Assembly: GCA_047495785.1 (NCBI GenBank)
Contig: JBLDXI010000074.1
Location: forward strand, 1,178,001 to 1,242,000
Origin: Lepidodermella squamata
Lineage: Eukaryota > Animalia > Gastrotricha
Direction of reading: 5' to 3'
Length of the DNA: 64,000 bases
Notes under the pieces: generated by a model
Database searches by the model: none
What the model was told of the DNA's origin: nothing
The model's input: the letters and a program-made list of their open reading frames with translations, nothing else
Shown: positions 4,081 to 64,000 of the stretch, one piece after another
Position numbering within the stretch: the first letter of the stretch is position 1
How the letters are laid out: the number at the start of each line of letters is the position of its first letter
Translations under genes and position numbers: made by a program

Positions 4081-4617
4081 ATGAACAAGTTCCTCGTTAG
4101 CGCCGTCGTTGTGGTAAGCATTTTACTGATTCTTTGTAAATGCTTACATTCGTTTCATTGCGTTTTACAGGCCGCTTTTATCGTTGTGGTATCGTCTGCT
4201 GCGGCCCCCGCGAAGGCCCCGGCTGCCGCGGCTGCCAAACCAAAGACTCCCAATACATCCGCGCAGAAGTCTCAGAAGTCTGCTCAAAAGAAGCCGAACC
4301 AGACCGACGCTCAGCGGAAAGCTTTCGTCAAGAATGTTGGCGGTGCCGCGAAGAGGAGTCAAGCTGCCTTTGTCAAGAAGATCCAAGCCATGATCAAGGC
4401 CAAATCGCTGCGCAAGTTCGTCGGGAGGTACTACTCGGGCAATGCGGCTGCGATCACCAACGGGATTACTAAGATAGCCAAGGATGAGAAGAAGCTTAAG
4501 TCTTTCGTCGCTGTGCTCGCCAAGAACCCCGAATTGATTGCCAAAAAACTTGCCGCAGTCAAGCCTCACGTGAAGCCAAACGCTAACAGCAAGGCTCCAG
4601 CAGCCAAGAAGCCGTGA
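4081..4617 (+). CDS. Secreted Lys/Ala-rich cationic helical protein (family member 1)
   Basis: Exons 4081-4113 and 4171-4617. The 57-nt in-frame intron is confirmed by frame-breaking introns at the same site in the paralogues. Signal MNKFLVSAVVV|AAFIVVVSSA. Mature region has no Cys and contains QRKAFVK..RYYSGN..IAKDEKKLKSFVAVLAKNP. Confidence 0.9.
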   Translation: MNKFLVSAVVVVSILLILCKCLHSFHCVLQAAFIVVVSSAAAPAKAPAAAAAKPKTPNTSAQKSQKSAQKKPNQTDAQRKAFVKNVGGAAKRSQAAFVKKIQAMIKAKSLRKFVGRYYSGNAAAITNGITKIAKDEKKLKSFVAVLAKNPELIAKKLAAVKPHVKPNANSKAPAAKKP

Positions 4618-4877
4618 GTAGCTGCTGCTGGCCGTGAGTTGCAAACATCTTGCGAGCATCTATCATTTTAACAGCATACTTGGCTTTAACCTGATACTCA
4701 TTTCGTGGAAGATTGCCCAATTTATAGAGGCTAGTGAAACGTTTTGAAGACGCGTAATTTATATTGCTGTTTATCTATTGCATTGTTTGAGGTGTGGGTC
4801 GATTGGTGATATCTCATTAAAATGTGTGGTTGTTCTGGCATCACTCGAATGTTTTTAGCTTTAATCCCGCGCTAATA

Positions 4878-8039: not shown

Positions 8040-10780
8040 ATTTCCATATACTTTTTCTATACCTAGGGGATTTAGTTTATTTGAAATAATTTATTTTTAA
8101 CCAAATAAAAGCGACACGCGTGACTTCGCCGCTTTTCTCATAGAAATTGACACCCCCTTAATCTCGGATTTCTTTCAAAGCAGGCTATCATTTTTTGTGG
8201 AATAACGGAGTGACCAGTCGCCAGCTTACCAACCATCCCCGCCTTAAATCCTAGCTCCTAGCTAGTATATTTCACGTCACGACTGTAATATGGATCCAAT
8301 CTAACAATCTAGCAATCTGATCCAGCCAATTGTTCAAACTAAATCTCGCCAGCGGAAGGATCGCTTTCAGGTGTATGGATAAGAATTCTCCTCCAGTAAA
8401 TATTGTATAAGACATTGATTCCCCACTTTGATTCCGGACGCTTTGTATACGCTTTAACACAGCCATACCGAAAAATGGCTGCAATATTAATATGCAGAAT
8501 TGGCTCTGAGTTGTTTCTCACGCGCGGTGTGTTATTGTTTACAAATTACTGGCTATATGCCAGTCATGGAAACCTGTTTTCCACTGGCCGTTTTTTGTTC
8601 GCAACAATTGAGTGCACGCACGGAATAAGTTGATGACCGTAATTTCTTGCATTTTGAATTGCGTAGTTTATCAGCGCTGCGCAATCTTCGACGGCGGCGT
8701 CGTGAAGATCGACACTCGAGGAAAAAACACGCCGCACGTGTCGAGGTTCCTATACTAATTTTCGGCTCAACAAGTTTTTTTCTCGGTTGGTGCTAAACAA
8801 ACTTTTATTGCCTGTGTCGGGCAGTAAAAGCTGACTGGCAATTTAATTCCTATTTTCACTGCCATTTCTTCAAAATGAATCTCTTGAATTACCTGCATCT
8901 CTAAAAAATGTTCAAGTTTAGTTATGAGATTAGCTCAGCCCCAGAGAATATTTGTGTAATATCATTTCTCGGTTCGGTTCATTACAGTTTCTAAAGTTTC
9001 CGCATCGCAAACTGACTTGAATTAAGAAGAGCCTCCGAATTTGTTTATAGAACTTATATAACTTATGACGACCCAAGATCATTACCATCTCAATTTCTCT
9101 GATCTTGAGTAAGGACTGATTACGATTACGGAGGTGATTTTCTGGTCATTTTAGAAGCATTTTTAAACAAGTTCTACATGGAACGATTACTTGACGATTA
9201 CTCTTCTTTAACTTCTTTTTCTGAGTTTTCTCCCGCCCGATCACTTTTTCTTCATCAACCTTGAAACGCAAATGCCTCGAATAAGCTGTCTAAGCAGATT
9301 CAGAATTACGAGATTAACCTTTAAATATGCTTAGTTAATTCCTTTCGTTAATTTTGCTCGTAAACGATACCGTGGCGATTCATAAGCAGATCTCAAACGA
9401 AAGAATAATCTCAGCTTTCATCCAATAAATTATCGGTTAAGCCAATTAAATCGCGTTTCAAAACGCATAGTCTGGCCACTTGACACTTGTATAACAAAGG
9501 GAAGAAAAAAATACGCAGCTCGTGCCTACGATTATCATTAAATTTCATCCCGTGGCGACATGTATTTGTCGACCAGGTGTGAGGCGGCTTTTATTACTGC
9601 GTGGGGCTATAGCGCGCTGGGCTCAGGCGATAACTCGAGTTTTTTGTTGTGTTTCTGAGGCTTGAGGCGGCACGCGTGGCCGATTATTAGCAATAAATAA
9701 TAACATAAAAACTTAACTTTTTTTCCTACCATGCGCAAACTCTCACCTACGGGTTGTAAAGATTGGTTTTAGATTCTGCGTTTAGAAAAGTTTTCACGCA
9801 CGTGAAATTGGTGAGTTCATCAGCGTCATTTTTTTTCATATGCTCACACTCTGTCGTTCACTGTCATTTCGAGCAGCAAAAAATAATCATCATCATTTTT
9901 TATTGTATAATTTTTTAACGGCTTGTTAGTGGCGCGCGCGTCAAATAAAAGTCTCCATGCCGCCGAGTCGAGTGGTTAAGAGGGATGGCTCCGTTGTTGC
10001 GCCTAAAAGGTGGTGTTTGTCAACGAGTGATAATAATAATAATAACCATGACACCACTTGCTATCATCATAACAATGCGTGACGTAAAATGATGTGTGGA
10101 TGGATGGATGTAAGTGAGTGAGTGAGTGAGTGTGGTATTCCTGTTATTATACTATGCCCCTTATGTGCGACGATTAAGGTGGCATGCTTTAAACACCCTG
10201 CATTTTCAAGGGTGTGATTTAATCCACCACGCGCGTCTCATATTAACTCGCTACTACTTCGTGTAATGGCTTTGGAAACTGATAACAGAGGTCAAATTAC
10301 GGAAAAAGCCATTAGCCTAATGGCATCACCAAGATCAGGCGTCAATCTCTATGATACCAATCAAAGCCTGATTACAGACATTGTTGAGCCCATCGAATAG
10401 TTGGATTGGATTGCCTTCATATTCTTACCGGTTTTAAGTTTCGAGCATCTCACTTGTGATACCTTCGATCTTCAGTCTGTTCATCCCATGCTCAGTATAA
10501 TCGTAGTTTCTAGCTCAATATAATCGTATGAATTCCTTATTTGTTACCTCTTCGCCATACCGTTTCCCTGGCACTTCCTTTTCTACGGGTACTAGTTGGT
10601 TTCATCTACTACATCCTGTTTTAGCTTCTCACAGAGAAGCTTGAGGTCATAAATGTAAGGCACTTCGATTCATTCGTGTATCAGAACATGTGCCTTTATG
10701 CCAAACTCTTCTTCTTAGTGACTGCAAAGTGAATTTAATACTGATTTTAGGAATTTTAGGTGGTAAAAGACATTTTCGCC

Positions 10781-12246
10781 ATGTCGCTATACACGACGCT
10801 CGCCCTGGCGATGCTTGTTGGCCTGGCAGCCGCTGCGGACCCAGCCTGCGACGGCATCCGCCCGTCTAGCCGTCAGCAGTTCTGCTGCGGTGGCATCATC
10901 TATTTTGACCCCAATTTCTTGTACACATGCTGCGACGGCAAAGTCTGCGAAGTCGACCCAGGAAGCGTAAGTCGTAACACCAATTAGCTCCATAATGCTA
11001 TGAAAGCTTGCATCCAGTTACTTCAATTAGGAAAAATATAATTGTTCAGAAAGTGAAACTTGCCAAATTATTGAAAATTTGTGTTAAATTGTTCTTGCAG
11101 AATGTTGTTGTCCAACCGACCCAGCCCCCGCAAACTACGCCTCCGCCACCTCGCCCGGTTCTCCCAGTCATTGTTCAGCCCCAGAACCAACAGCCAGTGC
11201 CAATTCAGGGCCAGACAGCCCCGAATGGTCAGCAGTGGTTCCCATGGAGCCCATTCATGTTCAATCCATTCAACCCATCATCTCAAGACGTAAGTTGAAG
11301 CAAAGCATGTCAATTATTGCATTTCAACCCTATTTTTGCAGAACCTCGCAATCGTTCCAAGGCCAGCTGTTACGACTACTCAGCCTCCAAGTGTCGTAAG
11401 TTTCGAGAAAAATTAGCAAATGCACGAAGCAACTATAGCAACTTGTGATTATCGTTTTCCTAATTCACTTCAAATTATAGAGAACGGTCAGTCGAAGAGC
11501 ATTAATCATATTATAAACATACATTAGTTAACACATTCAGAGTTCAGAGCTTTATAAAATTATAGCTTACTGTAGCATTTCTGTTTTTCTATCTGTTTCT
11601 CTTAACTGTAGACCTTTCCTTTTCACAAGCATGCTCCTCGTTAATTTTTATAAGTTCAACACTTTTCGTTTATCGTCTTCAAAATCATAATTTCCTTACC
11701 TTCCTTTCTTAGTTCTGCGATGGCGTCGATCTGACGCAACTGCAGAAGGTTCAACCTAGCCTGGCCTGCTGCGGCAATCAGGTCGTCTATGACACTCGCT
11801 ACTACACCTGCGGCAGCCAGGCCGGCGCCCAGCCCCAGGTCACGAGCACTCAGTCACCCAGCGCAGTCACCCTGCCGACCGCCTTCCAGCCTATCCCGTG
11901 TGACCAGAACTTGTACTACGTCGATCCGCGCATCGCCAGCTTTTACAAGTGCTGCGCCTCGACTGCCTACGACAGCCGTACTGAAACCTGCCAACAGGCC
12001 TATCGCCTCATGTACCAGCCGACCAACACTTACCGCGTCCAGCCCCTCGGTTTGTTCACTTTTTCAAAATAGGAGGGAGGGGGAAATATAATTTTTCCCA
12101 TAGCAGATTTAATTTATCTCATTTAATTTTCAATTGTTTGTTTCTTTGTAGACCCGGCCGTTGCGCCTCAGCGATCAATGCTTAGCTGCGGAGCGACCAA
12201 GTACATTTTTGCCACCCCGGATCTTGCGTCCCAGTACACGTGCTAA
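10781..12246 (+). CDS. Secreted double-Cys (galaxin-like) protein, modules A-B-C-D with Pro/Gln/Thr linkers
   Basis: Exons 10781-10966, 11101-11289, 11342-11395, 11713-12049 and 12152-12246, all GT..AG and frame-consistent. Signal MSLYTTLALAMLVGLAAA. Motifs CCGGIIYFDPNFLYTCC, LACCGNQVVYDTR and CCASTAYDSRTETC. Ends QYTC*. Confidence 0.9.
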
Positions 12247-13332
12247 ATCAGGCCAACGCCGAGTCGCCGTCAAACCGCCACTCTCAAGCCACTATCACCG
12301 ATGTACCGATGTTCTTACATAGCCATTGGAACGCATTTAATTTTGAATATGAGATTATTATACCAACATATTTCTACCCCGCTATATTTCCGCTTCACAA
12401 GCAATACTGCCAGTTTTTTCAACCATAACTTAGTTAATATGTAAGAAATCATTTTTTGATCGAAGTGAAAAAACTCAAGATTAAACAAAGATGCTGAAGC
12501 TGCCAATTTTTTTACACACCGAGAGTAGTTTTTTCAAATTAGCCAGCAAAAAATACAGCTTGGTAATTGTCTAGAAGCATGAGAATTTTTTCGCTCTTTT
12601 TCAGTTTTCTTGTCTGTATGTGTGATATTTCGTTACATAAATTATACAAAAAACATTATTACAGTTTTATTCATGCTTCACGCTAGCACGTGCATATTTT
12701 TCTTATTCCAGAGCTAATTAAAAAGGAATTATTACAAAATTTGTGAAGAAAACGTGTTGCTAATAAACTTCGATTTTTGACTCCTCTCGTCAAAGACCAG
12801 AAAGTTGGTTTAATTGAACAGCTAGAGAAAGTTAATCTTCACTTGTAATTAACAGACCCAGTTGAGGAAATTGGAAAAATAAGGATTGGAAATCTGGGAA
12901 GAGTTATATCGATAATGTAATTAACGGAAAGGAGAAAATATAGCGTTGTAAAAGCCCTAATCAAACTCCAAACTGCAGATTTGCCAACGCGGAGTCTCAA
13001 ACTAGGTATAGCAACAGAACAATCACGGCCCGCTGTTAACTCTTTAAGGGGTTTCCATTTAGGCAACATTGGGCAATTTGTAGGAAATTTGTCATTTAAA
13101 TGTATGCCTGCTGATAATCCGGATGAATACAATTTTATAGCGAAAGTAGACGAAAAAACAAGAAGCGCGATGTAATGTGCGTATGCAGCGTTGCAATAAG
13201 GAATAGCAAAAAAGTGTGTTGAGTTGTCGCGAGCCATCGCAAAAAGCCGTGGCAATAAAAGTTTAATACGCGATAGCATGCGGCCTGTCAACAAGGTCAA
13301 GTCAATTATTCAACACAGCACATCATAAAAAG

Positions 13333-14743
13333 ATGAGCCCTACTATGATTTTGCAAAACCACTCATTCAAGCCTTTCGTTGTTATCCTAAGTCTGCTGCA
13401 TATCGTCGAATCTGTTCCGATTTTCAGCCCAGTTATCGAGGATTACGCCGCTGCGGACTCACCGTTTGAATTTTATCCCGCGGCCGACCTCGAGACTACC
13501 TCAATAGCTAATGACATCGTTGACATTTCTGAGGATAAACCTGCGGACCATGCCGAGGGTGTCAACATTAGCAACGATGACATAGAAATTTGTCAGAAGC
13601 TACAATTCCAGAAATTTCGATGCTGCAATGGTATGCTGTACAATGACCCCAACAGGAATACTTTCTGCTTCAATGGCACCATCTACCGCATCTCAACTGG
13701 ACTCCCTCTCAATGTAGGTATTTCTTTGAAATTTCCTGTTGACTGAAGGATGAACGCTGATTCATGTCTCAGAAGTGGTGGGAAAATGCATTCGAAGTTG
13801 CTTCGTTAAATTTCCCATTGAAATTGCAATCTCTTGAGCTTTGGAACTCGCAATAATCTGAATGTTTTATTTTTAGATTTCACAACAAAGCGATCGGCTG
13901 GTTCCTGTGAGCACTATTCTATACCAAGCTATTACGTCACTAACTGGAAAGCGCGTCAAAGCAGCCCCTCGTAGCCTAACTGATTTGCTCCAATCTCTGA
14001 TGCGATCACCGGCTATGGCTCGTATGATGGAAGATGCGATGTCATCGCAAATTAGAGCCCTTGCTCCGATATCATTTACTGACAACTTCAATCAGCCGTA
14101 TTTCAATCAGAATCCGCAGAGACCACAACAGCCGGTTCATATCGAGACTACCTCTATTCCAGTGCCCGCGAAACAAATTAATCGGGTTGATTCGGCTCTT
14201 AATTCGCCCAGGGAAATGCCATTAAATTGGGGAAGCAACATCGCCGTTCAAAATGTCCCACAGCCTTTCATCGCTCAAGATTTTGATCCTGAGGCTGGTC
14301 CAAGGCGAAGGCCTCTTGTGCGCCCAGGGCCTGTTTACAGCCAAAGACCTCAGTCTCAACCATATTACGGTTACAACGGGTATTACTCCAGACCGGCGAT
14401 GGTGAATGTCCAAAATCAACAGGCATATTTTAATAGCAATCCTAACTTCCAAGGCAGTGGTCGTATGATGGGGAATTATGGCTATGCTGATGGGATTCAA
14501 AGATATCCTCAGCAGTTCAATCCCGGCCCACAAAATCGGATCGTTTACGAACAGCGACCTCAACAGGCCTACTATCCGTATCAGGCCGGGAGAAGGCCGT
14601 TCACTGATCAGCCTCGGCGGAGAATTTTCAGACAACCTAACGGAAATAGGAATCCGTATCGCCGTGGTTTCAGTCCGCAGAGTAATCGTTCCATGAAAAG
14701 CTTAAACCCGCGGCCTCATTTCGGAATATCTTACATCGGATAG
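13333..14743 (+). CDS. Secreted protein with acidic region, divergent Cys module A and long Q/P/N/R/Y/G low-complexity tail
   Basis: Exons 13333-13713 and 13877-14743. Hydrophobic N-terminus (FVVILSLLHIVES). CCNGMLYNDPNRNTFCFNG resembles CCGGIIYFDPNFLYTCCDG. AATAAA at about 14768. Confidence 0.8.
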
Positions 14744-18641: not shown

Positions 18642-19769
18642 CTCCCATTTCTGTGGCTTGTTATGTTAGTTATCGTTAATTAGTTAGCTATAGATACCCA
18701 ATGGAGTATCGCCGTCATCTATTCTTGAAAATTGTTACTTCATTTCAGTTTCAAGTAATACATTTTCAGAAAACTTAAAATACCGCTTGTTTCCTAATTG
18801 CGACACTTTAAAAACTATCCGCTAACTTCCAGAGTGTGGAGATTCTATAATTTTTCCTAGAACTTTCTATTTAGAACGGGTCTTTTCTAAAATAGTCAGT
18901 AATGATTCATTAAATTCTGAATGCGATATCTCTCGAAGCTATTAAAGTATAGTAATAGTGCATCCTATTAGCTGCTGTATTAAATTTCAAATTCTGCATT
19001 GTTGATAGGATTATTTTACTTCAACATTTACTCGAAGTCACCTCTTTAGTAATAACTGTTTGGACATCGGATACTGATTGGGAATCGGAGATGTTAAATT
19101 GGCGAAATTCCGGCAACAGGTCGCTACTATACTATTTGCTGAGTGCTGGCTATTTCGATATATTCAACCTGTTATCGCCATTTTTGTTGAAAAAAATGTG
19201 ATGAATTATTCTCTTGGTTTTACTTCCTTTGTTCATTTTCGATTATTTCGGTGCGTTGAAAATAAAGATGCACGGCAACGGGTCACGGCAGCTCGTTTTT
19301 GCTAACTGTGAAATCTTCAATATATCGAAGAATTACACAAAAGCGCGAGAGAACTTATTAAAATTCGCGAGAAAGAATTATAGAAAGGATAGACGAAGAA
19401 GCTGAATTCCTCTTTTCTCTTCAAGAGTCCAAGAACGCAAGATAGCAATTGCAGCTAATGGCAATTTTATAGCCCTTGAACCGAAGATAGTAATTTTGGA
19501 TGCAACCGCTCCGCAATTGTAAACACCGCAATATAGCGGTATAATGATATATAGAAATATGCGCTAGCACTGGCGGTCCCTTACGTCGCAACACGAACGA
19601 CGTTCAATTTAAGCAACCGCATTTGGTTATCGCAAATCAGCTCATATAGCTTCTCGAGATAACATGTTGCTCCTTATCATGACATCCCCCGGCTTATCTC
19701 ATTCCCATCGAAGTTTAGCCGAGATTAGCGAACGAGTCGAGAAAGCATTATTTGCCACGAGTCAATAAT

Positions 19770-20730
19770 ATGACTGAAGCAAACGCTAGGCCTAACTTCA
19801 ACGCTTGGGACTCGTTGGGAGAACCAGAAGATGGCAGGCCATTGGCGACTATTCGCGGCTACAACCTACCAGTAAACATTCCGATATTCTGGCCGGAGGC
19901 GTACAACTTCGAATTTGACCCTCAAGACGTGTTCATATCATCCTTCCCAAAAAGCGGCAACCACTGGCTGACTTACATTGTCTATTTATTGAAAACGCGA
20001 GATTTCGGACCTGTTCCCGAGGTCTTACAGCGGCCTTTGATCGAACTACCTGTGCCTCGGGATCAGTTGCAAAAAATCGCAGCCTTGCCTCCGCCCCGAG
20101 TTTTGGACACCCACTGCTCGCACCCAATATTGCCGAAAAATTGCTTCACTGCAAAGGTCATCTACTTGTACCGAAATCCGAAAGAAGTTGTCGTCTCAAC
20201 GTATCACCATTATAAGGCCCTAGCAGCATGGTCGTATGAGAAATCATTCGAAGGATTGGTCGATCAGTTCATTGCCGGCAAAACGTTCTGGGGACCTTAT
20301 CCCAAGCATCTGAGTGAAATGTGGAAGCTGAAAGACGAAGGCAAGCCGATACTTTTCGTCCGTTATGATGATTTGAAAAAAGACACGCGCAACATGATTC
20401 GGAAAATAGCTGAATTTATTGAAGTTTCTCTGGATGATGACTTGCTAGAGAAGATTTTGAATGCAACCTCGGTCGACGCAATGCGAGGGCGGAAAGATGT
20501 CACAGGAGCTCATTGGCAAGCGGTAATTTCCTGCTTTATTCCATTTTAACATATAATGATGTTGCTATCTCTAATTACAGAACGGTTATTGGAATCCCGA
20601 AGCTGCATTCGTGCGAAAAGGCGAAGTTGGCGGCTGGAAGGGCATGTTTTCCGACCCAGCTTTGCTTGCACGATTCGATGAGTATATCAAAAGTAACGTG
20701 CCCCTGGAAATGCAATTTAATGATGCGTAG
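19770..20730 (+). CDS. Cytosolic sulfotransferase (Sulfotransfer_1 family), about 300 aa
   Basis: Exons 19770-20522 and 20581-20730. 5'-PSB loop DVFISSFPKSGNHW, catalytic-His region PRVLDTH, 3'-PB motif YLYRNPKEVVVS, and C-terminal FVRKGEVGGWK encoded in exon 2. Confidence 0.93.
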
Positions 20731-29609: not shown

Positions 29610-30340
29610 ATCTCTTGAAAATCAACAGCAAATAGAACGCATTTTCAGATTTTTTGAAAAATTTAGTTTCCTAAAAATTGCGAGCACCATGAAAAGGTAT
29701 CCAGGTAATACTTAGGCTCGCAGTTTGCAAAATGCAAAATGAAATATGGTATCGGATTAACAGCTGACACGGGTTCTAGTTAAATGCGCAAACACGCGAG
29801 CGGACGCAGATTAATTGCCGTAGTCACCGTTTTTGACATTCATTTCGCGCACGCACTCATGGTTGTAGTTTTTTGTGTTTTTGTGTGAAAGCATGACTGT
29901 GAGCGTATTTTATTCACGCGTCTATGTTTCAGCAGGCGCAACGCGAACAACAATGCGCTACAATTTTTTCGTATGCGCGTATTGCTGTTACAGAGTTACA
30001 GCTACAGCGTAGCCTGAGAAAGTTGCCGACGCCCGCACGACACGAGCTGCTGGAAGAGGTGGGATGCTGCCGTTTATATAGTATAAAACATTCCCACTGC
30101 CTAATTCTGAATGGCGATTTGTGTAAAGAAGTAGAAGTAGAAGTAGAAGATGAACGAGTTCCGGTTGCGACCGCAAGTATTCAGCTTTGTACGGGTAATT
30201 TCGTATCACGGCTGATGTTCGGCCCTTCTATACAATTTGAGGCGTTATAAGTTAAATTATAGCCTTCTCGAATTTGCGTTTATTTGGCCGTTCAAATTTC
30301 AAGAAATCATGTGTTATAAGAGACTAGATTCAGCGTAACT

Positions 30341-35115
<4,775 letters not shown>

Positions 35116-35533: not shown

Positions 35534-38500
35534 TTAGAATTTTCTATCCAAATCGAAGTCGTTGTTAACTGTGATTACAAAATTATGTAATTAGTTTATT
35601 TGAATAGTTTAATTTATCTTACTTTCATTTGAGCTGATCTCGATAGGTCTACTTTGTGACTGCCTATTGCTGCGATCAGGTGGCTTGGATTCGATAAATC
35701 TCTGAAAAAAAATCGCTGTCCAGAAAATAGTCAGACAATAAGAAGAAAGGGAATTACGGAGTGGTCTCTAGGTCGGTTTTCGCACGTGTCGTAGCGGGTG
35801 TCGTATAATTTCGACATGCAACACCTATAATTGCCGTAGCCAGCTCTCGCGACCATATAAGTTTTATTCTAAAAATAAAATAAAAATTGATGAAAAATTA
35901 GGGTAGCTAAAAATTTATATTAATGTGCTGAAAATATCATGTAATATAGAAAAAAAAATAATTTTTTAAATAATTCAATTTGAAATTTGAATTTTGAAAT
36001 TTGTCATTTGAAAGTTTGAAAACCAATTTTAAATTATGAAAAAATATCGATAAAAAATTGGAATTTCAATTAATAAATTACCAAGCATCTCAGGGTTATT
36101 GTTTCACCTTCCTCCTCCTCTTCCTCATCTGCCTCTTCAGATTCCGGTTTCGGTGTTTTCGTCCTCGCCGGCAGCCTAGTTGTTGATCTGCTGGCAGCGG
36201 GTTTCTTCAACTGCGACTGGGATGGTTGCTGATGGCTGATTTTTCCATGATCCTGTTCCTGCTGGCGATAGGACTGCAGCAGATGTTGGTACAGCAACTG
36301 CTGCAGGTATCTTTCATCATTCTCTGGCACAGATGATTGCGATTTTGAAGATTGCAATACCGCTCCTAGTTGCGACGAAGAGTCGCCCTGAGAAGGCTGT
36401 TCTTGAATTGCTGGAGCCTTTTTAGGGCCCGATGAAATGTTTCGAAGTGGCACGACGCGTTGCTCGCGAATCAGCTGGATGATTTGGCCCTCGGGTGTTT
36501 GAATTCGGGTCTGAACCAGACCGGCCGGGTCTTCATCGAATTTTTTGTTAGCGGGCCGTTTTGTACTCTGGTGAACCATGATCACCGGCTTTCCGCTTCC
36601 TCCGCTTGAAAACTATCAAAAATATCCAACATCAAAACATATTTCCCAACTCAAGAATTTAAGAATTCAAAATTTAATCCATTGAAACGGAATGGAAAAT
36701 TTTCCATGAATTTTACATTTTTGCATCTTTGGCTGAAAAATTGGCAGTTGAACACAAGAAATTGAAAGGCTAATGCTTAATTTATATCGCCAAAATCATG
36801 ATTTTATACTCGAATTTTTCAAGAAATATCGAAGGGCCAATATCTTCATCCAGATTTAAATTTGATCCTCCCTATAATTCGATCAATCAAATAAAATTTG
36901 AAAAAAAAACGAAAAATATTGAAATATGCTTTGACGGGCTCGTATTCGAAACTTGGCACCAAATAGAACCACAAGAAGCATAGCTTTTCGAAGAATTTTT
37001 CCTATCCCTGCTGAAAAAACGAGGATAATTGGATTTTTTTGGATGAATCATAAAATTTCCAAAAAACATGGAAAAGCATTTGCGGGCGAATTAGATTGTT
37101 CGGTGTTCGAAATGTGGTTCGGCTAAGAGAAAGAGACCCTAAAAATAGATGGATATATTTACCGAAAATTCCGGCGGCTTGAGGAACTGCAGTTTTTCCT
37201 CCGGCGATTGGTCATCCGGCGAGACGATGATAGTCGGCGCATTATTCTCCCGAGACGCCTCATCCGGCAAATTATTGTCCACCGGCCTCAGCATCGACGC
37301 GCCCCCGCCCCGGTTCAGCAGCGTCAGAAAATCTTTCAGCGACAGCGTATCACCTACAACAGGGCTCAACGCAGGTGCTGACGACGTTTTTGCCTCCAAA
37401 ACCGGCCGAGTGGTTAGCAGGTTGAATCTAGGCTGCGTCGCCGCAGGTTTTTGCTGCTTGAAAAACTCTAAAATCTCCGACATTTCCGCGCTGTTGCTGC
37501 CCTCGGGTAATAACCGGGTCGGTTCCAGCGTGGTACTGGTCCTGGAAATCAACGGCCGCCGGGTCGTAATCGGAATCAGCCGTCGCCTTCGTGTTGTCGT
37601 CGTAGTCGCCTCCTCAGTTGTAGTCGCCCAGTAATTTTGGTCATTCTCATCCTCGCTGATTGTCACGAAAAACGGATCCACCGTGGTACCGGGCGTTGTA
37701 GTCGCGCGGCCTCGGATGCGGTTGGGGCAGTCGAAAAATCGCGGGTCGTAAACAGCCTGGCCGCAGCATTCAAGGTGAGGCGAGATCGCCCGAACCTTCG
37801 CCAGGTCAACGTCGCCGCAATACCGGCTTTGGCTCTGTGCCAAGTGAGGCGTGGACGCCGACCGTGACGCAGCCGGGGCCGTGGGTATGACAGGTATCCG
37901 ATTCAGCGTGTTTCCTTGGTTTTCTTGGCGCTGTTTCAGCGGCGTTTGGTCTTCTGGCATTCCTGAGAGTCGGAAGTTGAGCGTCGCCCATACTGACGGG
38001 GCGACGTTGGCGAGGTCGGCGGGGGTGGTGGTCAGGGGGAGGGCGGTGGTGCGGCTTGTTGATGAGTACGTTGTCGCACACACTCGGCCGTTGCAGCAGG
38101 TGTAAAGAAAATTTGGATCTATGAAAATAAGAAAATAAGTCAATGATTTTGGAACCGAATTGAAAACCACAACACGAAGATAATTTTGAAAAATTGAGAA
38201 AATCAGAAAATTTCATTTTGACCGGAACCAAATTTAAATAATATTCATTGTTTCAGAAAAAATCCAACATGTAAATAAGTTTAAAACAAATTTCTATATT
38301 TCTAAATTATTTCAAATTTTAATTCCGAAATCCCAACAGGATGACTACAACCCCAGGATGCCTAAAAGTTATACCACCACCGCTTCGAGAATTCGTATAG
38401 ACTTGTAATCTTAGGACTATCGCCAGACTGCGATTGTCATCAGAAATTCCGTTCAAGTATGAATTTTTCTCCATCTTAGTGCATAAAGCTGCATTTGGAT

Positions 38501-49600: not shown

Positions 49601-51780
49601 TATTTTGTCCATCGTCCATCCATTCCGGTGGTTCTCGCCTATTTCTTGTTAGTTTCGAGATGGGAGACTGCTGCTCCTGATTAAGCCTGTAAACGCCTTG
49701 CGCACCAGGCACCACAGGTTGTGATGAATAAGAATCGCGGTTGGAAAAAATAACTGGACTTTTGAACGCCGATATCTGTCGACACCATTAACACAAGCAA
49801 TTCTATGTAGCTCTTCACATGATAGGGTGAAAATGACGATTTTCTTTTGCATTTTTTATTAATTTTGTATCAAGTGGCAAATTGCATAAAATTAAAATTA
49901 ATCTCTAAATAAAATACGACAAAAGCGCCAATATGAAAGCGAAATCGTAGAATATTTTCAACAGGCCCGAAGCTTGGGCTAAGAATGGGGGAACAACTTT
50001 TTTCATGTCTTATTTCATCCGACAACCTAAAATGTGGCTTAAAATAACCGACATGAAATCTGCCTAAATCCAAACTTCGCCGATAATCGTTGCCCCCTAT
50101 CGCCAAGCCCAGGAATCTGAGAACTCAGTTCATTACATTCGATGCGTTGCTCCAGTCGATTCCAGAACCAGACGTTTTTTCGAGGAACCCATCAGCTGGC
50201 GGAATCGGGACTTCAAGCATAGGTTCAAAAAATCAACGATCAATAATCGAAATCGGTAAATCAAAATCTGTGTTCAGAGGTTTCTAATTGACTGTTCGCA
50301 AATGTTGCATTTTATTCACGCTCAGTTTAAAGTTCATAGCTCATAGTTGCCTAATTAAGCTCAAGCTAGCATTCTTTGATGTATTATATAATGCTATATC
50401 AAAAAAGAAGAAAAAAGAACTGCATAAAGAAGTTATGTCAGCGAAATAGCTTTGAAAGGCTCTGTCATTAATGTTATATTTCTCTACCGCGATATTTGAA
50501 GCCCACTATGGCTGATTCAACATAAACAAGCAAGTTTTCTTTAAAGTTAAGCTTACTATATGAATACCTGAGCCCCCCACAAATAGTGATGCGCAACGAT
50601 TTTTTTGTATGAAACGATTAAATGGGGCAATGAATCGTAATCGAATCGAATTAATCCCGATTATTGGCCCACTGAATCAGGCCGATTAATTGTGAAAATA
50701 AGGAAAAAATAGTGTAAGTGAAAATCAATCCGATTATTTAGATTCGTAGATTTTTCGAATCTATGCTTGGCTTTACATAGTGAGATGGAAGTGGATACCA
50801 CGGACTTCGTCCATCGATTTCATCAGCCGATTTATTGCAGCCAAGACAATATGATGGAAAAGCAAACAACACAGCAAACAGAAACAATTTTAGCATAGTT
50901 TCATCAAATTACTTGAAATAGCTCCATTTATCCGGATCATAGTGGAAAATACGCCGTAAAACAGCCCGGAATATTTTCTGCTATTCCGGGCTGTTTGAGC
51001 CAGGATATCATGCTATCCGGGCTGATTTAAACTCAGGTCATGGCTTGAAATTTTGGCAGCATTTACCCCTATTTTCGATTTCTTTGAGCACAGATACAAA
51101 AGTCACAAAAAATACTGAGGCGCCAAAACCCCCGCGACACCCAAAATTTTATTATTCCGCAATTACGAGAAAATTAACTAAGTTGAAGGATTTGCCGCAA
51201 AGACACGGGGACAAGCGGGCCAAGCCATTTTTGCCGTTGGATCAGGTTGAATCCGGCAGAAAATCCAGCGGAGTCGAGAATCATCGCCGATTGCCGAGGC
51301 TTGAGCCAGCCAAAACTTGCGCCTGATATTGCTCCAGAGCGGGGCCAGATCTACTCGAGAACCGTTGTGGCGCCAAGAGAAGATGTTACAGCAAACAAGT
51401 CGCCATAGCCGACACCGTTTCGTTGCCTTTGCTGGGTGACTGGCTGGTCGCCTGGAGATTCTTCAAGCGTATTAGCAGCCTGGCTTCTAGAATTGAACGG
51501 CCAATTCGCAATTCGAGAGATAGGCTTGACGTTTTGCCCGAATCGATGCCACCCATGTTGATGCGGACGGGCGTGAAAAAAGCATGTTCAAATCGCGGCG
51601 AAAAAGTGAAAAATGATTAGCTTTTGAAAATCATTCGCTTTTGCAACTTTGATGCAAAATTTTAAGTTGGATTTTTTATTTTCGTTATTTTCACTTAATT
51701 CGACTGAGGTGATACCTGTATTGTAGCGATAATTTGGTATTTCGGGAGGATAGTCGGGGATAGTGATCCGGATAACAACT

Positions 51781-51916
51781 ATATCTGGAAGCTTTTAGCG
51801 GATAGGTCAAATATTCGCCTTCAGGCCGCTATTCCGACCTTCGGCTGCGCCTCAGGTCTCCATAGCTGGCCTTCAGGCGAATATTTTCCGCTATCCGCTA
51901 CAAAGCTCCCAGATAT
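51781..51916. repeat. ~136-bp imperfect palindrome
   Basis: atatctggaagcttttagcggatag..aatattcgcc pairs with ggcgaatatt..ctatccgctacaaagctcccagatat. Confidence 0.7.
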
Positions 51917-52035
51917 TGTATAAAATGTAAATAATAAAATAAAGTAATAAAATAAATATATAATAAGTCCTTATTATATAAATCAGCTGAGCCTTAACCC
52001 CAGACACATCAAACCGAAAGCAATGCTCAGATATC

Positions 52036-52763
52036 TTAAGATTCGTCCGGGCTCGCCTCGCGACCAGCAGCAGCGGTGGTTGAGTGGCGACGACGTCCAC
52101 CGTAGGGAGAACGAGCTGACTCGTCTGGGCTCGCCTCGCGGCCAGCAGCAGCGGTGGTGGAGTGGCGACGACGTCCACCGTAGGGAGAACGAGCTGACTC
52201 GTCTGGGCTCGCCTCGCGGCCAGCAGCAGCGGTGGTGGAGTGGCGACGACGTCCACCGTAGGGAGAACGAGCTGACTCGTCTGGGCTCGCCTCGCGGCCA
52301 GCAGCAGCGGTGGTGGAGTGGCGACGACGTCCACCGTAGGGAGAACGAGCTGACTCGTCTGGGCTCGCCTCGCGGCCAGCAGCAGCGGTGGTAGAGTGGC
52401 GACGACGTCCACCGTAGGGAGAACGAGCTGACTCGTCTAAACTGTCTTCACGGCCAGCAGCAGCGGCGGCGGTGGTGCTGTGATTCTTGTGCTTCTTGCC
52501 GCCCTTCCCGTTTTTGCCTCCGCGAGGATGATGGTTGCCATCGGCAGCTCGAGCAGTCTCGTCCAAGTTAGCCTCTCGTCCCCCGGCGCAATGACCGTCG
52601 ACATAATGACGACAACGATAACGAGCTGCCTCTGCGTCAGCTTCGACTTCAGCCGATGCAGTCCAAACAGCGACAGATACCTAACAAAAGAAAAACTCAG
52701 TTTACGGGCTAATTATAAGATTGCACTTACACCAAAAAGGATGAGAGCAAGTAGTTTGTTCAT
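52036..52763 (-). CDS. Secreted multi-peptide precursor (prepropolypeptide) with five 26-aa tandem units
   Basis: Exons 52763-52731 and 52680-52036 (50-nt intron). MNKLLALILFG|VSVAVWTASAEVEADAEAAR-YRCRHYVDGHCAG-GREANLDETAR-AADGNHHPRGGKNGKGGKKHKNHSTTAAAAA-GREDSLDESAR-(SPYGGRRRHSTTAAA-GREASPDESAR)x5, with the last linker ending DES*. Confidence 0.88.
52041..52437. repeat. 78-bp coding tandem repeat, 5 near-identical copies
   Basis: Unit gactcgtctgggctcgcctcgcggccagcagcagcggtggtggagtggcgacgacgtccaccgtagggagaacgagct. Confidence 0.95.
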
Positions 52764-53045
52764 TCCGAAAGAATGTTTTGTAAAATGAAGTCAGCAATGA
52801 AAGCTTCTGAACGTTATTCTTACACGCCATATAATATAGGCACTAACCAGATCCGCTCCGACAACTGTGCAAACCCGGGTTCACTTGGTAAATTATTGGC
52901 ATTTGGCGATGGATAATTATATCGCGCGCGAACAACTTATTCATGTGTGGTATATTTTAATTTAAAAAGTCGTTCGTTTTGTTGACACTGCGGTCCGTTA
53001 TCCATCTAAGTACGTTAGAAATAACGGACAAGATTACTTTGCCTT

Positions 53046-53415
53046 TGACGAGAAGAATGACAAAAAGAAGATCGACGCTTTCGTCGCTGAACTCGCAAAG
53101 GACCTCGCCGAAGAGCTCGCCAAAGAAAATCGTCACAACAAGTCAAAGGCTAACACCAAGCCAACAGCCAACACCAAATCGTGGGGGGGGGGGGTAATAC
53201 GAGGATGCCGTTTAATGCCGCGAGGAGTAGTGCGATCTGTCACCATGAAAATTATAACTTAGTAGTTGGTTTTTTAATGTGATATTCTTTTCGTGGAAGA
53301 TCGCCCATTTTGTAGAGGCTGGTGAGACGTTTTGGAGTTCGTAACAGCTGTTTTATTATATAATTTAACTGGCGTGGGTTGAGTTTCATTAAAATGTGTG
53401 GATTTTCTGGCATCA
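53046..53415 (+). pseudogene. 5'-truncated relic of the Lys/Ala-rich family (C-terminus plus 3'UTR)
   Basis: aagaagatcgacgctttcgtcgctgaactcgcaaaggac matches 63875-63913. The 3'UTR motifs tcgtggaagatcgccc..tagaggct and tcattaaaatgtgtgg match 4700-4840. Confidence 0.75.
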
Positions 53416-56379: not shown

Positions 56380-57217
56380 ATGAACAAGTTCCTGACTTGC
56401 GCCGTCATCGTGGTAGGCATTTTGCTGAATCTTAGATGATTGATGCATAGCGCCGTTGCATTTTTAGGCCGCTTTCGTCGTTGTGGTATCGTCTGCCGCC
56501 CAGAAGGCTCCTGCTGCTTCGACTGGCCAGAAGCCTAAGACTGCCAACGCGGGCCACAGCGCCGCGCCAGCTAAAAAAAATCAGAATTCGCATCAAACTG
56601 AAGCTCAGCAGAAAGCTTTCGTCGCGTTTATCAAGAAGGAAGCAGCAAACCAAGCCGCATTCGCCAAGAAAATCAAGGAGCTAGTCAAGTCCAAGAAGCT
56701 GCGCGGCCTCATCCGCAAGTACTACCGTGGCAATGACGGGGCCCTCACCAAGAAGATCCAAAAGATAGCCAAGGACGACAAGAAGCTCAAGAGTTTGGTC
56801 GCTTACCTCGCCAAGAATCCTGAAGCTGCCGCCAAGAAGCTCGCGGCGGTCAAGCCCAACATTGCCACTGCTGCCCACCCGGCACCTGCTGCCGCCAAGC
56901 CAGCACCTTCTGGCCGCGCTGCCCCAGCTAGGAAGACGTCGTACCAATCTGCCGCTCAGCAGAAGGCTTTCGTTAAGTATTTCGGCGGTCTCGCGAAAAA
57001 CCAAGCCGCACTCGCCAAGAAACTTAAGACCCTCAAGACCACGCAGCTGCACGACATCGTCAAAAAGTACTACGGTGGCAATTCCAACGCTGTCACCAAG
57101 AATATCCAAGAGATAGCCAAGAACGACAAGAAGCTCAATGATTTCGTCGCTAGGCTCGCCAAGGACCCTAAAGCAGTAGCTATCGAGCTCGCAGCAGTCA
57201 AGCCCCGTTCCGGTTGA
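56380..57217 (+). CDS. Secreted Lys/Ala-rich cationic protein with two tandem domains (family member 2)
   Basis: Exons 56380-56412 and 56468-57217. The ~85-aa module (AQQKAFV..NQAA..KYY.GN...TK.IQ.IAK.DKKL...VA.LAK.P.A.A..LAAVKP) occurs twice. Promoter and 3'UTR motifs are conserved. Confidence 0.9.
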
Positions 57218-57778
57218 ACCAACCCGGTACCTGCAGCCAACCGAGCAGCTTCTGGCCGTGATTATTTAAAATCTTGCAAGCATCAATCATCATTACTATC
57301 ATAACTCTATAGTTTTGGCTTCAAAATATTATGTACTGTGTGAAAGATTGCCCTATTCGTAGAGGCTGGATGAAACGCTTTGTAGAGGAGCAAAAAGCGA
57401 TACCTTAATAGCCGGTGGTGCGAATTTCATTAAAATGTGTGGATTTTCGGCATCACATACCAACCTTTTATTGCGCGAGCCCAATGTTCAAACAATTCGG
57501 TGATTGGTGTTAAACACATGACCAATGCAGTTGGCAATGTATGGGTTCATTGAATATTAAAATCACTAAATAGTCAATTGGAGCCTTCTCTATTCGACTA
57601 TGCATTTTGCAAATTATGTATGCATTTGTTTTGTTGCGTTGGAACAGAAAGCAAATCCTCTGGTTTCTTGCTTCGACAAAGAATTTGCGAATTGAATGTA
57701 AAGATGTGATCAGATCTACGTGGCAGCTACATGTTGTTAAGATGAGGACACCTTTGAGATGAGGCTGAAGTATACTTT

Positions 57779-58171
57779 GCCGCCCGGAGATCTCCTGGTT
57801 CCCCTACTGGCCGCAAGAACCAACCGATTTCTGCTGGACAGAACGGCCACGCCGCCTCAAAGAGATTGCGCCAGACTGACGCTCAGCGGAAAGATTTTCA
57901 AGGATCAAGGATATCGGCGGTGCGGCGAAGAACGACCAAGCTGCCTTTGCCGAGTAGATCCAAGCCATGATCAAGGCCAAATCACTCCGCAAGTTTGTTA
58001 AAAGAAGTACTACTCGAGCAAAAAGGCCGGCCTCGCCATCTTAGTGATCGCTAAGATAACGACGAGGACGAGAAGATGCTGAACGCATTCGTTGGTTACC
58101 TCGCCAAGAACCCCGAATTTGTCGCCAAAAAGCTAACCACGATCAAGTGTCACAATAAGCCGACGGCATAA
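57779..58171 (+). pseudogene. Lys/Ala-rich family pseudogene
   Basis: Homologous to exon 2 of the 4081 and 63471 genes. In-frame TAG at 57955-57957, a tcaagga duplication causing a frameshift, further indels, and no exon 1. Confidence 0.85.
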
Positions 58172-59870
58172 TAGGTCTATGACCTAAGGTTAACAACAAG
58201 AGAAATAAGGCTGCGGCACCAAACCGGTCGCTGGTGATCGTGTGGAAGGCTGGTTGCCCATTTTGCCTTGATTGTCGTGGCTAGTGAAACTCCTTGAAGA
58301 CGTGCTTTTAGAATTACTAATTGATTTTATTTTAACTTAGTGAAGTATGCGGCATATTTTTTTTTAAGTTTTCAAGCTATATTTTTTGAACCGAAGCTGA
58401 TACGAAGGCATTTTTGCAAAATGAAGCTTTGCGGTTCCCGTTGCGATTGAATGCGATTAGTCAACCCATTATGGGCTAAAAAACAAAGTTTTAAGTGCCG
58501 TAAGCGTCCCTGATAGCCCAAATCTTTGCAAATCTGTGCAAGATCGTGCACGGATCTTTGATGGATCTTGGCAAGCTCAGCTAAGATCTTGCCAAGATTT
58601 GATCCCTAGGGATATGAGCTGTGTGACGCTTTCATATTCAGTTTGGGCTTCTATTCTCTTCTTGACCCAACTCACAACGCAGTGTTCAATATCCACAAAC
58701 AAAACAGAAGCTGTGAATTATCGACCGGCTGCTATTCCATGTGGGATATTATTGGTTATTGAATGCCACAAGGACAAGTTGCGTTTCCCATCGGCTGCAG
58801 CCGTTCTGGCACCCCACTGTCAGCCAGTTGTCACAGTAGGAAAAAATGATGTTAATTTGTTGATATTTTATATCTTGTATTGTACGCAGAATTTCGGAAT
58901 TGTGAGCATCCTTCACCCAACACTATAAACGATATAACGATAGAAAATTGACATTTTTTTCTAGGGGTCGCAGCCGTATACGAATTTTAGGCGAAGCATT
59001 AGTTCTGAATTGAACACTCTTTCTTACAGAGAATGTTACGCTGAATTTAATGGTGATTCTTTTATAATTACTTTCATCAAGATACTTTCACCCGCAAGAA
59101 ATATCGGAAAAGTGAAAATAGCAAAATTAGGTTCCGCTCACCGTAAATTTGGTTCCGGTGAAAGGAGGACCCAATAACTTGTTCACATGATGCGTTTTGT
59201 TGACACTATGGTCCGTTATCCATCTAAGTACGTTAGAAATAACGGACAATGACGTACGTTCGATTCACGTACATGATACATGCAATTTAATAATTATCAA
59301 CTTCAATCTTTCTATTCAGCGAGGGAATAAAACGTCGAAAGATAACTAATTTAAAAACATCGCTCGTCTGCGCAATCAGGAGATCGATCATTATTATCGG
59401 TAAATTTCGAACTCGAGACGTTTTACTATATCACCTGAATAGTGAGGCTCTTTTCTCCCATTCGGGTATTACCATTATTCGGGTTTTTCGGGGTTTTTTT
59501 CCAATTTTTCGGATATTCTGTTCTAGTTACAGTGAGCCATTCGGTAATAATATTATGGTGCTTTCACAAATGCGTCCGATGGTGAAAACTTCGGCTAGCA
59601 ACTCGCAAACTTCGGTAGATGGAAGCGAAACGTCGGAGAGCGTTATCAGTGGCTCTTCGGACGCGCGCCCGAAGTCTCTATTGTTTAGCTGCCGAAGTTG
59701 CTCATTGTCACGCATTTGAGCGCGCGCGCAAGCGAGTGGCAGGCTAGGTACCGGGGTCAGGCAAAAAAATGTCTATTTAAGCGTAAATGCTGAATTCAAC
59801 TAAATAATGAGACGTGAAATGCGATGCGGATCATAAAAATCTAAATTTCATCGAAAAATTATGTGATTAA

Positions 59871-63470: not shown

Positions 63471-64000
63471 ATGAACAAGTTCCTCGTTGGCACCGTCGTT
63501 TTGGTAAGCATTGTGTCTTTACTTTTGATGCGTTCTAATGTATTTTGCAGGCCGCTTGCATCGCCGTTGTGTCGTCTGCCGCACGCGCTGCGAAGGCCCC
63601 ATCTGCCGCCGTTGGCAAACCGAAGTCTCCCAGTACTTCCGCCCAGAAGCCCCACGCTGCCTCGGGTGTTCAAAAGAAGCTGCATCAGAGCAAAGCTCAG
63701 CGGAAAGCTTTCGTCAAGGATGTCGGCGGTGCCGCGAAGAGCAACCAAGCTGCCTTTGCCAAGAAGATCCAAGCCATGATCAAGGCCAAATCGCTGCGCA
63801 AGTTCGTCGGGAGGTACTACTCGGGCAATGCGGCTGCGATCACCAACGGGATTACTAAGATCGCTAAGGACGAGAAGAAGTTGAAGGCTTTCGTCGCTAA
63901 ACTCGCAAAGGACCCCAAATCGGTCGCCAAAAAGCTGACCAAGATCAAGCGAGCCAATAAGACGAAGGGCAACGCCAAGCCAAAGGCATCGACTGCCAAG
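63471..64000 (+). CDS. Secreted Lys/Ala-rich cationic protein (family member 3), running off the window end
   Basis: Exons 63471-63503 and 63551 to beyond 64000 (47-nt intron). MNKFLVGTVVL|AACIAVVSSA..QRKAFVKDVGGAAKSNQAAFAKKIQAMIKAKSLRKFVGRYYSGN. TATA at 63391. Confidence 0.9.

Follow-up and report, generated by a model that had tools for sequence, protein, structure and literature searches.

The minus strand of the 64,000-nt stretch analysed here (the window) carries a two-exon gene for a precursor of seven cationic segments alternating with acidic linkers. We consider it slightly better than an even bet (about 0.55) that processing at single arginines would release from this protein seven amidated, non-lytic peptides, most likely serving in antimicrobial or other chemical defence. 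The defensive role is the weakest step of this explanation: even if the single-Arg processing is granted, its chances fall somewhat short of even, with neuroactive or pheromonal roles as the alternatives. The gene works like a spider latarcin or cupiennin precursor and is not a member of that group, as its cargo is not amphipathic and the searches gave no sequence homology. Maturation through the processing quadruplet motif (PQM) and its inverted form (iPQM) has been described as close to a spider speciality; a clean case outside spiders, if true, would mean that the processing code is convergent or older than thought, and that in small invertebrates screens based on dibasic sites overlook one class of precursors for peptides. 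Testing the claim would cost little, since the three predicted peptides have calculable masses and no detected relatives.

The precursor gene and its predicted peptides

The gene occupies positions 52763-52036 and encodes 225 aa once spliced. Its unspliced frame meets a stop at codon 17, and the 50-nt intron is required because the frame is open only when spliced. The splice is supported indirectly by three neighbouring genes of the same exon build, in which the length, start and intron phase of the first exon are those of precursor exon 1. The two-exon model with its splice, put forward in the earlier note, therefore stands as far as sequence can carry it, on the open 225-aa frame and the neighbours' matching build. 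A 21-aa signal peptide was predicted from hydropathy (2.81 across the best 10 residues) and from the small residues at -3 and -1, and the spacing rule between TATA box and initiator was the basis for the putative core promoter. The parts of the gene are the following.

52808..52838, minus strand: putative core promoter; TATA-like box at 52838 and initiator-like TCAG, its A 30 nt downstream (52808)
52731..52763 (33 nt), minus strand: exon 1; ATG at 52763, codons 1-11, first half of the predicted signal peptide
52681..52730 (50 nt), minus strand: intron predicted from sequence; GT..AG, phase 0
52680-52036, minus strand: exon 2; ends in TAA
52651..52680, minus strand: signal peptide residues 12-21; predicted cut after Ala21
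52621..52650, minus strand: acidic propeptide, 10 aa; PQM at its end, X-Ala dipeptides inside
52579..52620, minus strand: peptide 1, a 13-mer plus Gly amide donor; two Cys seven residues apart
52549..52578, minus strand: linker 1, 10 aa from Arg to Arg; iPQM and PQM
52453..52548, minus strand: peptide 2, a Gly/Lys/His-rich 31-mer plus Gly donor; predicted amide mass 3044.56 Da
52423..52452, minus strand: linker 2, 10 aa; iPQM and PQM
52063..52422, minus strand: peptide 3 array, five copies of a 15-mer with internal GG-RRR, plus Gly donor
52036..52062, minus strand: truncated terminal linker and stop codon; iPQM present, PQM absent

The five copies of peptide 3 (52375-52422, 52297-52344, 52219-52266, 52141-52188 and 52063-52110) are joined by four identical 10-aa linkers, and a 78-bp tandem array of 5.4 copies with 96% matches extends over 52043-52466; the C-terminal end of peptide 2 is homologous to peptide 3. 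The predicted amide masses of peptides 1 and 3 are 1534.67 Da (reduced; 1532.65 Da with the disulfide) and 1585.82 Da. Each of the seven cationic segments (one of 13, one of 31 and five of 15 residues) has E-x-A-R directly before it and G-R-E after it, so that both the motif grammar and the number and lengths of the peptides agree with what had been proposed before, and each of the seven predicted peptides would carry a Gly amide donor at its C-terminus. Every one of the six internal linkers starts with an iPQM and ends with a PQM; the seventh, truncated, has an iPQM without a PQM, which would fit a place where amidation alone is required. The motifs take up 14 of the 32 Arg of the precursor, the other 18 lying inside the cationic segments and matching neither motif, and all 16 Glu fall in the propeptide or the linkers.

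AlphaFold2, run on the single precursor sequence, gave no fold (mean pLDDT 43, pTM 0.12). Peptides 1, 2 and 3 contain 1, 0 and 0 bulky hydrophobic residues, and their best hydrophobic moments are 0.31, 0.52 and 0.15, as against 0.69-0.81 for the helical proteins encoded nearby. Cargo so poor in bulky hydrophobic residues cannot form lytic amphipathic helices of the latarcin or cupiennin type, and any antimicrobial action would thus be non-lytic; its composition and the neighbouring cationic proteins lead us to infer that it might work through, for example, binding to cell wall, nucleic acid or metal.

None of 200,000 shuffles of the 100-residue non-redundant chain contained three ordered units of PQM, cationic segment and Gly-iPQM, a count that overstates independence because the linkers are duplicates of one another and come close to a single observation. 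Three Gly-iPQM sites appeared in 841 of the shuffles, and the plain PQM and iPQM counts were reached by 104,191 (52%) and 121,220 (61%) of them; either motif alone is common by chance. Codons give stronger evidence. In all three linker types G-R-E and D-E-x-A-R stay constant while the codons for these Gly, Arg and Glu residues vary and the intervening residues differ, and one linker is common to three unrelated cargo starts. The five repeat copies differ by six substitutions at 5 sites, all six synonymous in the gene frame and none of them in the other two frames of the strand; with 28% of possible changes synonymous in the gene frame, p is about 0.002, and the antisense mirror frame gives the same synonymous-only pattern since third positions are common to both. 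Prohormone convertases call for a basic residue at -2, -4, -6 or -8. Not one of the 14 motif arginines has such a partner, and convertase rules therefore do not account for them.

One public sequencing run (run X1) matches this region; as its source and that of the window may be related, it gives no independent support for presence, and it looks like DNA, as its contigs retain the intron. Its repeat contig has a depth of 267 compared with 63-66 for single-copy sequence (about 4 times), which argues that the repeat array is no assembly artefact. A 613-nt contig of the run shows 11 differences; 2 of them fall within 305 coding bases and 9 within 308 non-coding ones (Fisher p 0.063). The coding ones, read by hand, are one synonymous change and one Ser to Leu in the signal peptide, and the non-coding ones lie upstream (6) or in the intron off the splice dinucleotides (3). 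Two further differences both alter a Pro codon in the terminal linker; over the covered parts the reading frame and the splice dinucleotides are unchanged. In a 3,344-nt contig of single-copy depth only 51 nt of one repeat unit were matched (window 52384-52434), and a second contig breaks away from the array at this very position. Translation by hand of both 30-letter loose ends in the gene frame shows no stops; the PQM and a G-R-E are retained, with the spacer lost. Taken as a pair, which is an assumption made on little visible sequence, they hint weakly at a second locus with one peptide module; the upstream junction is also readable as a splice donor.

Neighbouring genes with the same first-exon build

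New beyond the earlier note is a first-exon build common to the precursor and three neighbouring genes for Lys/Ala-rich secreted proteins.

4081..4617, plus strand: Lys/Ala-rich secreted-protein gene; same first-exon build, probable family member
56380..57217, plus strand: Lys/Ala-rich secreted-protein gene with two helical domains; same first-exon build
63471..64000, plus strand: Lys/Ala-rich secreted-protein gene, cut by the window end; same first-exon build

All three open with Met-Asn-Lys in a 33-nt exon 1, followed by a phase-0 intron of 47-57 nt, and continue with ten further signal-like residues and Ala at position 21, as in the precursor gene. A hydrophobic 33-nt exon with a GTA or GTG donor follows 5 of the 2,101 ATGs of the window, and 4 of the 5 are the precursor and the Lys/Ala-rich genes. 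The DNA score of the precursor signal region against the three genes was reached by 6, 5 and 0 of 500 shuffles, and the introns and upstream DNA were no more alike than shuffles. We infer that the four genes may belong to one family with a common signal exon and unrelated cargo; the shared build suggests a gland gene family, and the precursor is likely to be secreted from a gland. That this link is carried by the exon build and a modest signal-DNA score counts against our preferred explanation. A further link at the 3' end, through an Ala-Gly-Arg-coding stretch past the stops, was rejected: the score of one gene was reached by 86 of 500 shuffles, and that of another by 2 of 500 but in an alignment running largely through AT-rich DNA. 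Past the TGA stops of two of the genes (4615-4660 and 57215-57290, plus strand) the frame stays open for at least 18 codons, with an Ala/Ser-Gly-Arg-Glu/Asp stretch resembling the precursor amidation junction.

The Lys/Ala-rich proteins are Cys-free, strongly cationic and amphipathic, contain neither PQM nor iPQM, and carry a helical domain of 85 residues, which the middle gene encodes twice. Their mature domain is predicted to form a six-helix bundle (pLDDT 80-87 over residues 51-120). The domain had no match in the ESM Atlas, none of 592 metagenome matches was confirmed, and Foldseek matched the fold to nothing at E<=0.001. The highest VIA-align Z was 4.4, with saposin B (Z 3.6) and amoebapore (Z 3.3) lying within noise. 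From their sequence these are candidate membrane-active defence proteins. Broken fragments of the family lie at 53053-53178 and 57779-58168 on the plus strand; the first, 290 nt upstream of the precursor start codon, occurs in run X1 as two indel-bearing alleles. A pyrimidine-rich tract ending in TAG stands three bases upstream of each ATG at 4081, 56380 and 63471, with no obvious donor after the TATA box, and these tracts may be putative trans-splice acceptors.

Processing, known precursors and rival readings

In the single-Arg reading, splicing would be followed by secretion through the 21-aa signal peptide, as the sequence and the three neighbours of the same build suggest, and in storage the acidic parts, propeptide and linkers, would keep the cationic cargo neutral, by analogy with the spider literature. 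An endoprotease would then cut after the Arg of E-x-A-R and of G-R-E, a carboxypeptidase would remove the Arg, and the exposed Gly would be turned into an amide by PAM, the last two steps being an established pathway. Expected from this are a 13-mer with a disulfide loop, a single 31-mer and five identical 15-mers. The propeptide may be trimmed by a dipeptidyl peptidase; for the linkers such trimming alone was discarded, as two of the three linker types lack X-Ala or X-Pro at the first or second step. Two properties of the cargo speak against this reading: GG-RRR is a textbook convertase and amidation site, and the intact 15-mers, in all five of which it occurs, may not survive, while a poly-Ala C-terminal amide offers no obvious pharmacophore.

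In spiders a PQM has Arg at -1 and Glu at -2 to -4 (PQM and iPQM are defined in PMC8290080 and PMC6832493); a protease cuts after the Arg of PQM or iPQM, a carboxypeptidase strips this Arg and PAM amidates the Gly, and the acidic spacers presumably offset the charge of the cargo (PMC6832493). With the complex precursors of spiders (cupiennins of Cupiennius salei, latarcins, oxyopinins and lycosid peptides) our gene shares a 21-aa signal (PMC7889660, PMC8290080), an acidic propeptide ending in a PQM (PMC8290080), Gly amide donors and identical repeats mixed with different peptides. It also shares anionic Arg-to-Arg linkers with iPQM and PQM, of 11-13 aa in Cupiennius and 10 here, and its truncated terminal linker resembles the cupiennin 't-linker' (PMC7889660). 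The propeptide has 10 aa as against 25-49 in Cupiennius, 10 being the published minimum. In contrast, spider cargo alternates cationic with hydrophobic residues and is amphipathic and helix-prone (PMC8290080), whereas the segments here hold 0-1 bulky hydrophobic residues; in addition, no sequence similarity was found with the exon 2 query, and the host genome is compact and intron-poor. The likeness to spider precursors is thus confined to the processing grammar: the amphipathic kind of cargo is lacking, the searches gave no homologous sequence, and the host genome is probably unlike that of a spider. The review PMC6832493 calls unambiguous PQMs rare outside spiders, which also weighs against the reading we prefer.

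We propose tentatively, and with the odds against it, that the full grammar of PQM, iPQM and truncated linker, probably with its own single-Arg protease, may have evolved independently in a small non-spider invertebrate, in a cargo-swapping gland superfamily sharing a signal exon, one branch of which would yield a new cocktail of non-lytic amidated peptides and the other Cys-free cationic helical bundles. Release of several mature peptides from one secreted defence precursor is described for Bombina maxima skin, the sea anemone Urticina grebelnyi, some centipedes and the honey bee; those precursors mostly use dibasic or spaced-basic motifs (PMC6832493), unlike the single-Arg sites here.

Homology searches were made with exon 2 of the precursor only. 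Among 7,998 scored candidates (lengths 117-375) none reached E<=1; Pfam gave no match, the ESM Atlas no usable one and the PDB sequences none at E<=10, and none of 528 pattern matches in JGI metagenomes was confirmed. A profile search of 1.84 billion representatives returned 8 matches of 26-42% identity, which were judged to reflect periodicity only and were not accepted as homologues. Three are neuropeptide-like precursors with a Pro/Tyr-Gly-Gly-basic patch (E 1e-7 to 1e-5), two of them with PWGG-KR repeats (one from a tick) and one a hagfish protein with YGGF repeats, which we take to be kinin-like and opioid-like; of the rest, two look like translated CRISPR arrays and three are other repeats. 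No spider peptide was among the matches to exon 2, the lone spider record in the profile search being a 935-aa hypothetical repeat protein at 26% identity. The earlier reader had not recognised the peptides, and the searches likewise gave no homologue; this says little about novelty, since the collections are weak in small invertebrates. Literature searches, which leave out most subscription journals, brought up neither a description of this protein nor a PQM/iPQM precursor from another small invertebrate; in the literature covered, the biological papers with the term iPQM all deal with spider venom.

The rival that survives best is a neuropeptide or pheromone precursor. A convertase would cut at GG-RRR, and perhaps at the GG-KK of peptide 2 and at G-R, and the products would end in Pro-Tyr-Gly-amide; with the PQM cut as well this would be a tetrapeptide, and otherwise a 22-mer spanning the linker. 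Short amides in many copies are typical of neuropeptide precursors; tandem copies, Gly-Arg signals and acidic flanks are all present here, GG followed by three Arg makes a dibasic site in 5 of 5 copies, and Pro-Tyr-Gly-amide ends look more like receptor ligands. Peptide 1, however, has no dibasic site and yet is flanked by the same linkers, and peptide 2 has Lys-Lys-His-Lys at the homologous position, which makes a less good site. The three neuropeptide-like sequences among the eight profile matches favour this rival, but at 27-31% identity they share with the precursor periodicity and the Pro/Tyr-Gly-Gly-basic patch only. The kinin core is F-x-x-W-G-amide and the opioid core an N-terminal Y-G-G-F/M/L, between dibasic sites; compared by eye with the three matches, the precursor segments lack the Phe and Trp of the former and the Phe4 of the latter and have a dibasic site on one side only. 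In the PQM reading the peptides also have no aromatic C-terminal core, and a second single-Arg motif stands at each peptide N-terminus, unlike in neuropeptide precursors. In cnidarian preprohormones G-R, GKR or GKK is the C-terminal signal after each copy, and G-R follows 7 of 7 here; the N-terminus there is usually set by Gln after acidic residues (PMC6402141), whereas our protein contains no Gln, leaving none for pyroglutamate, and starts every cationic segment after Arg. Finally, the first-exon build is held in common with a locally expanding cationic helical family, broken copies included. On balance we regard a neuropeptide or pheromone precursor as unlikely.

Two further rivals explain less than either the single-Arg defence reading or the neuropeptide one. 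The protein might remain uncleaved, as a disordered secreted repeat protein of mucus, glue, cuticle or eggshell whose acid and base blocks self-assemble, the motifs being a by-product of block boundaries. The lack of a predicted fold agrees with this, although a peptide precursor is also expected to be disordered, and so do the repeat unit rich in Ser, Thr and Ala, the alternating charge and the many lineage-specific secreted proteins in the window, one with a weak galaxin-like match. It leaves unexplained, however, why Gly-Arg is invariant ahead of every acidic block, why one linker surrounds three different segments and why the stop comes immediately ahead of the last PQM. A known structural repeat protein, the match named in the earlier note as the finding that would speak against it, did not appear in the sequence searches; we consider this possibility quite improbable. 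The gene might also be silent or in decay, or its frame might have arisen by chance within a GC-rich minisatellite. The broken neighbour-family fragments at 53053-53178 and 57779-58168 would agree with this, but it is very improbable indeed given intact promoter-like elements, signal peptide, splice sites and stop, only synonymous changes among the copies, and the fact that run X1, where it covers the gene, alters neither the frame nor the splice dinucleotides.

The host genome and other features of the window

The window has about 42% GC. On the minus strand at about 30340-35115 it contains a gene for an ABCC (MRP1-like) transporter with three short coding introns, one exon of >3.2 kb and an open stretch of 1,093 codons. 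Set against the features of spider genomes as a yardstick, the GC content, the introns of 47-57 nt and those of the ABCC gene point to an animal with a compact, intron-poor genome, probably no spider. The host may still be a mite or another small arachnid, and the grammar could then be an inheritance rather than a convergence. A fragment of the transporter is 48-58% identical to the 120 matches listed, from insects, molluscs, annelids, a flatworm, crustaceans, a mite and vertebrates. A FastTree built from these 120 listed matches puts it on a branch of 0.6 within a group of 10 (local support 0.89), of which those named are a clam, a tubeworm and a flatworm, and this tree places nothing, as the set has no named spider, nematode, tardigrade or rotifer.

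A sulfotransferase domain gene lies at 19719-20549 on the plus strand (Pfam Sulfotransfer_1, E 1.5e-45); none of 419 candidate relatives reached E<=1e-20. Rfam and tRNA searches gave 0 each. Proteins with predicted secretion, paired-Cys galaxin-like motifs and Gln/Pro/Thr-rich tails are encoded at 2114-2443, 10760-12069 and 13267-14743 on the plus strand and at 37139-38212 on the minus strand, and one such protein has a weak Pfam galaxin-repeat match (E 4.6e-5, below the curated cut-off). An imperfect palindrome of 142 nt at 51778-51919, 120 nt past the precursor stop codon, reaches a depth of up to 4,600 in run X1 as against 63 and is likely a MITE-like mobile element. A 57-nt segment is duplicated at 96% identity at 52975-53031 and 59193-59249.
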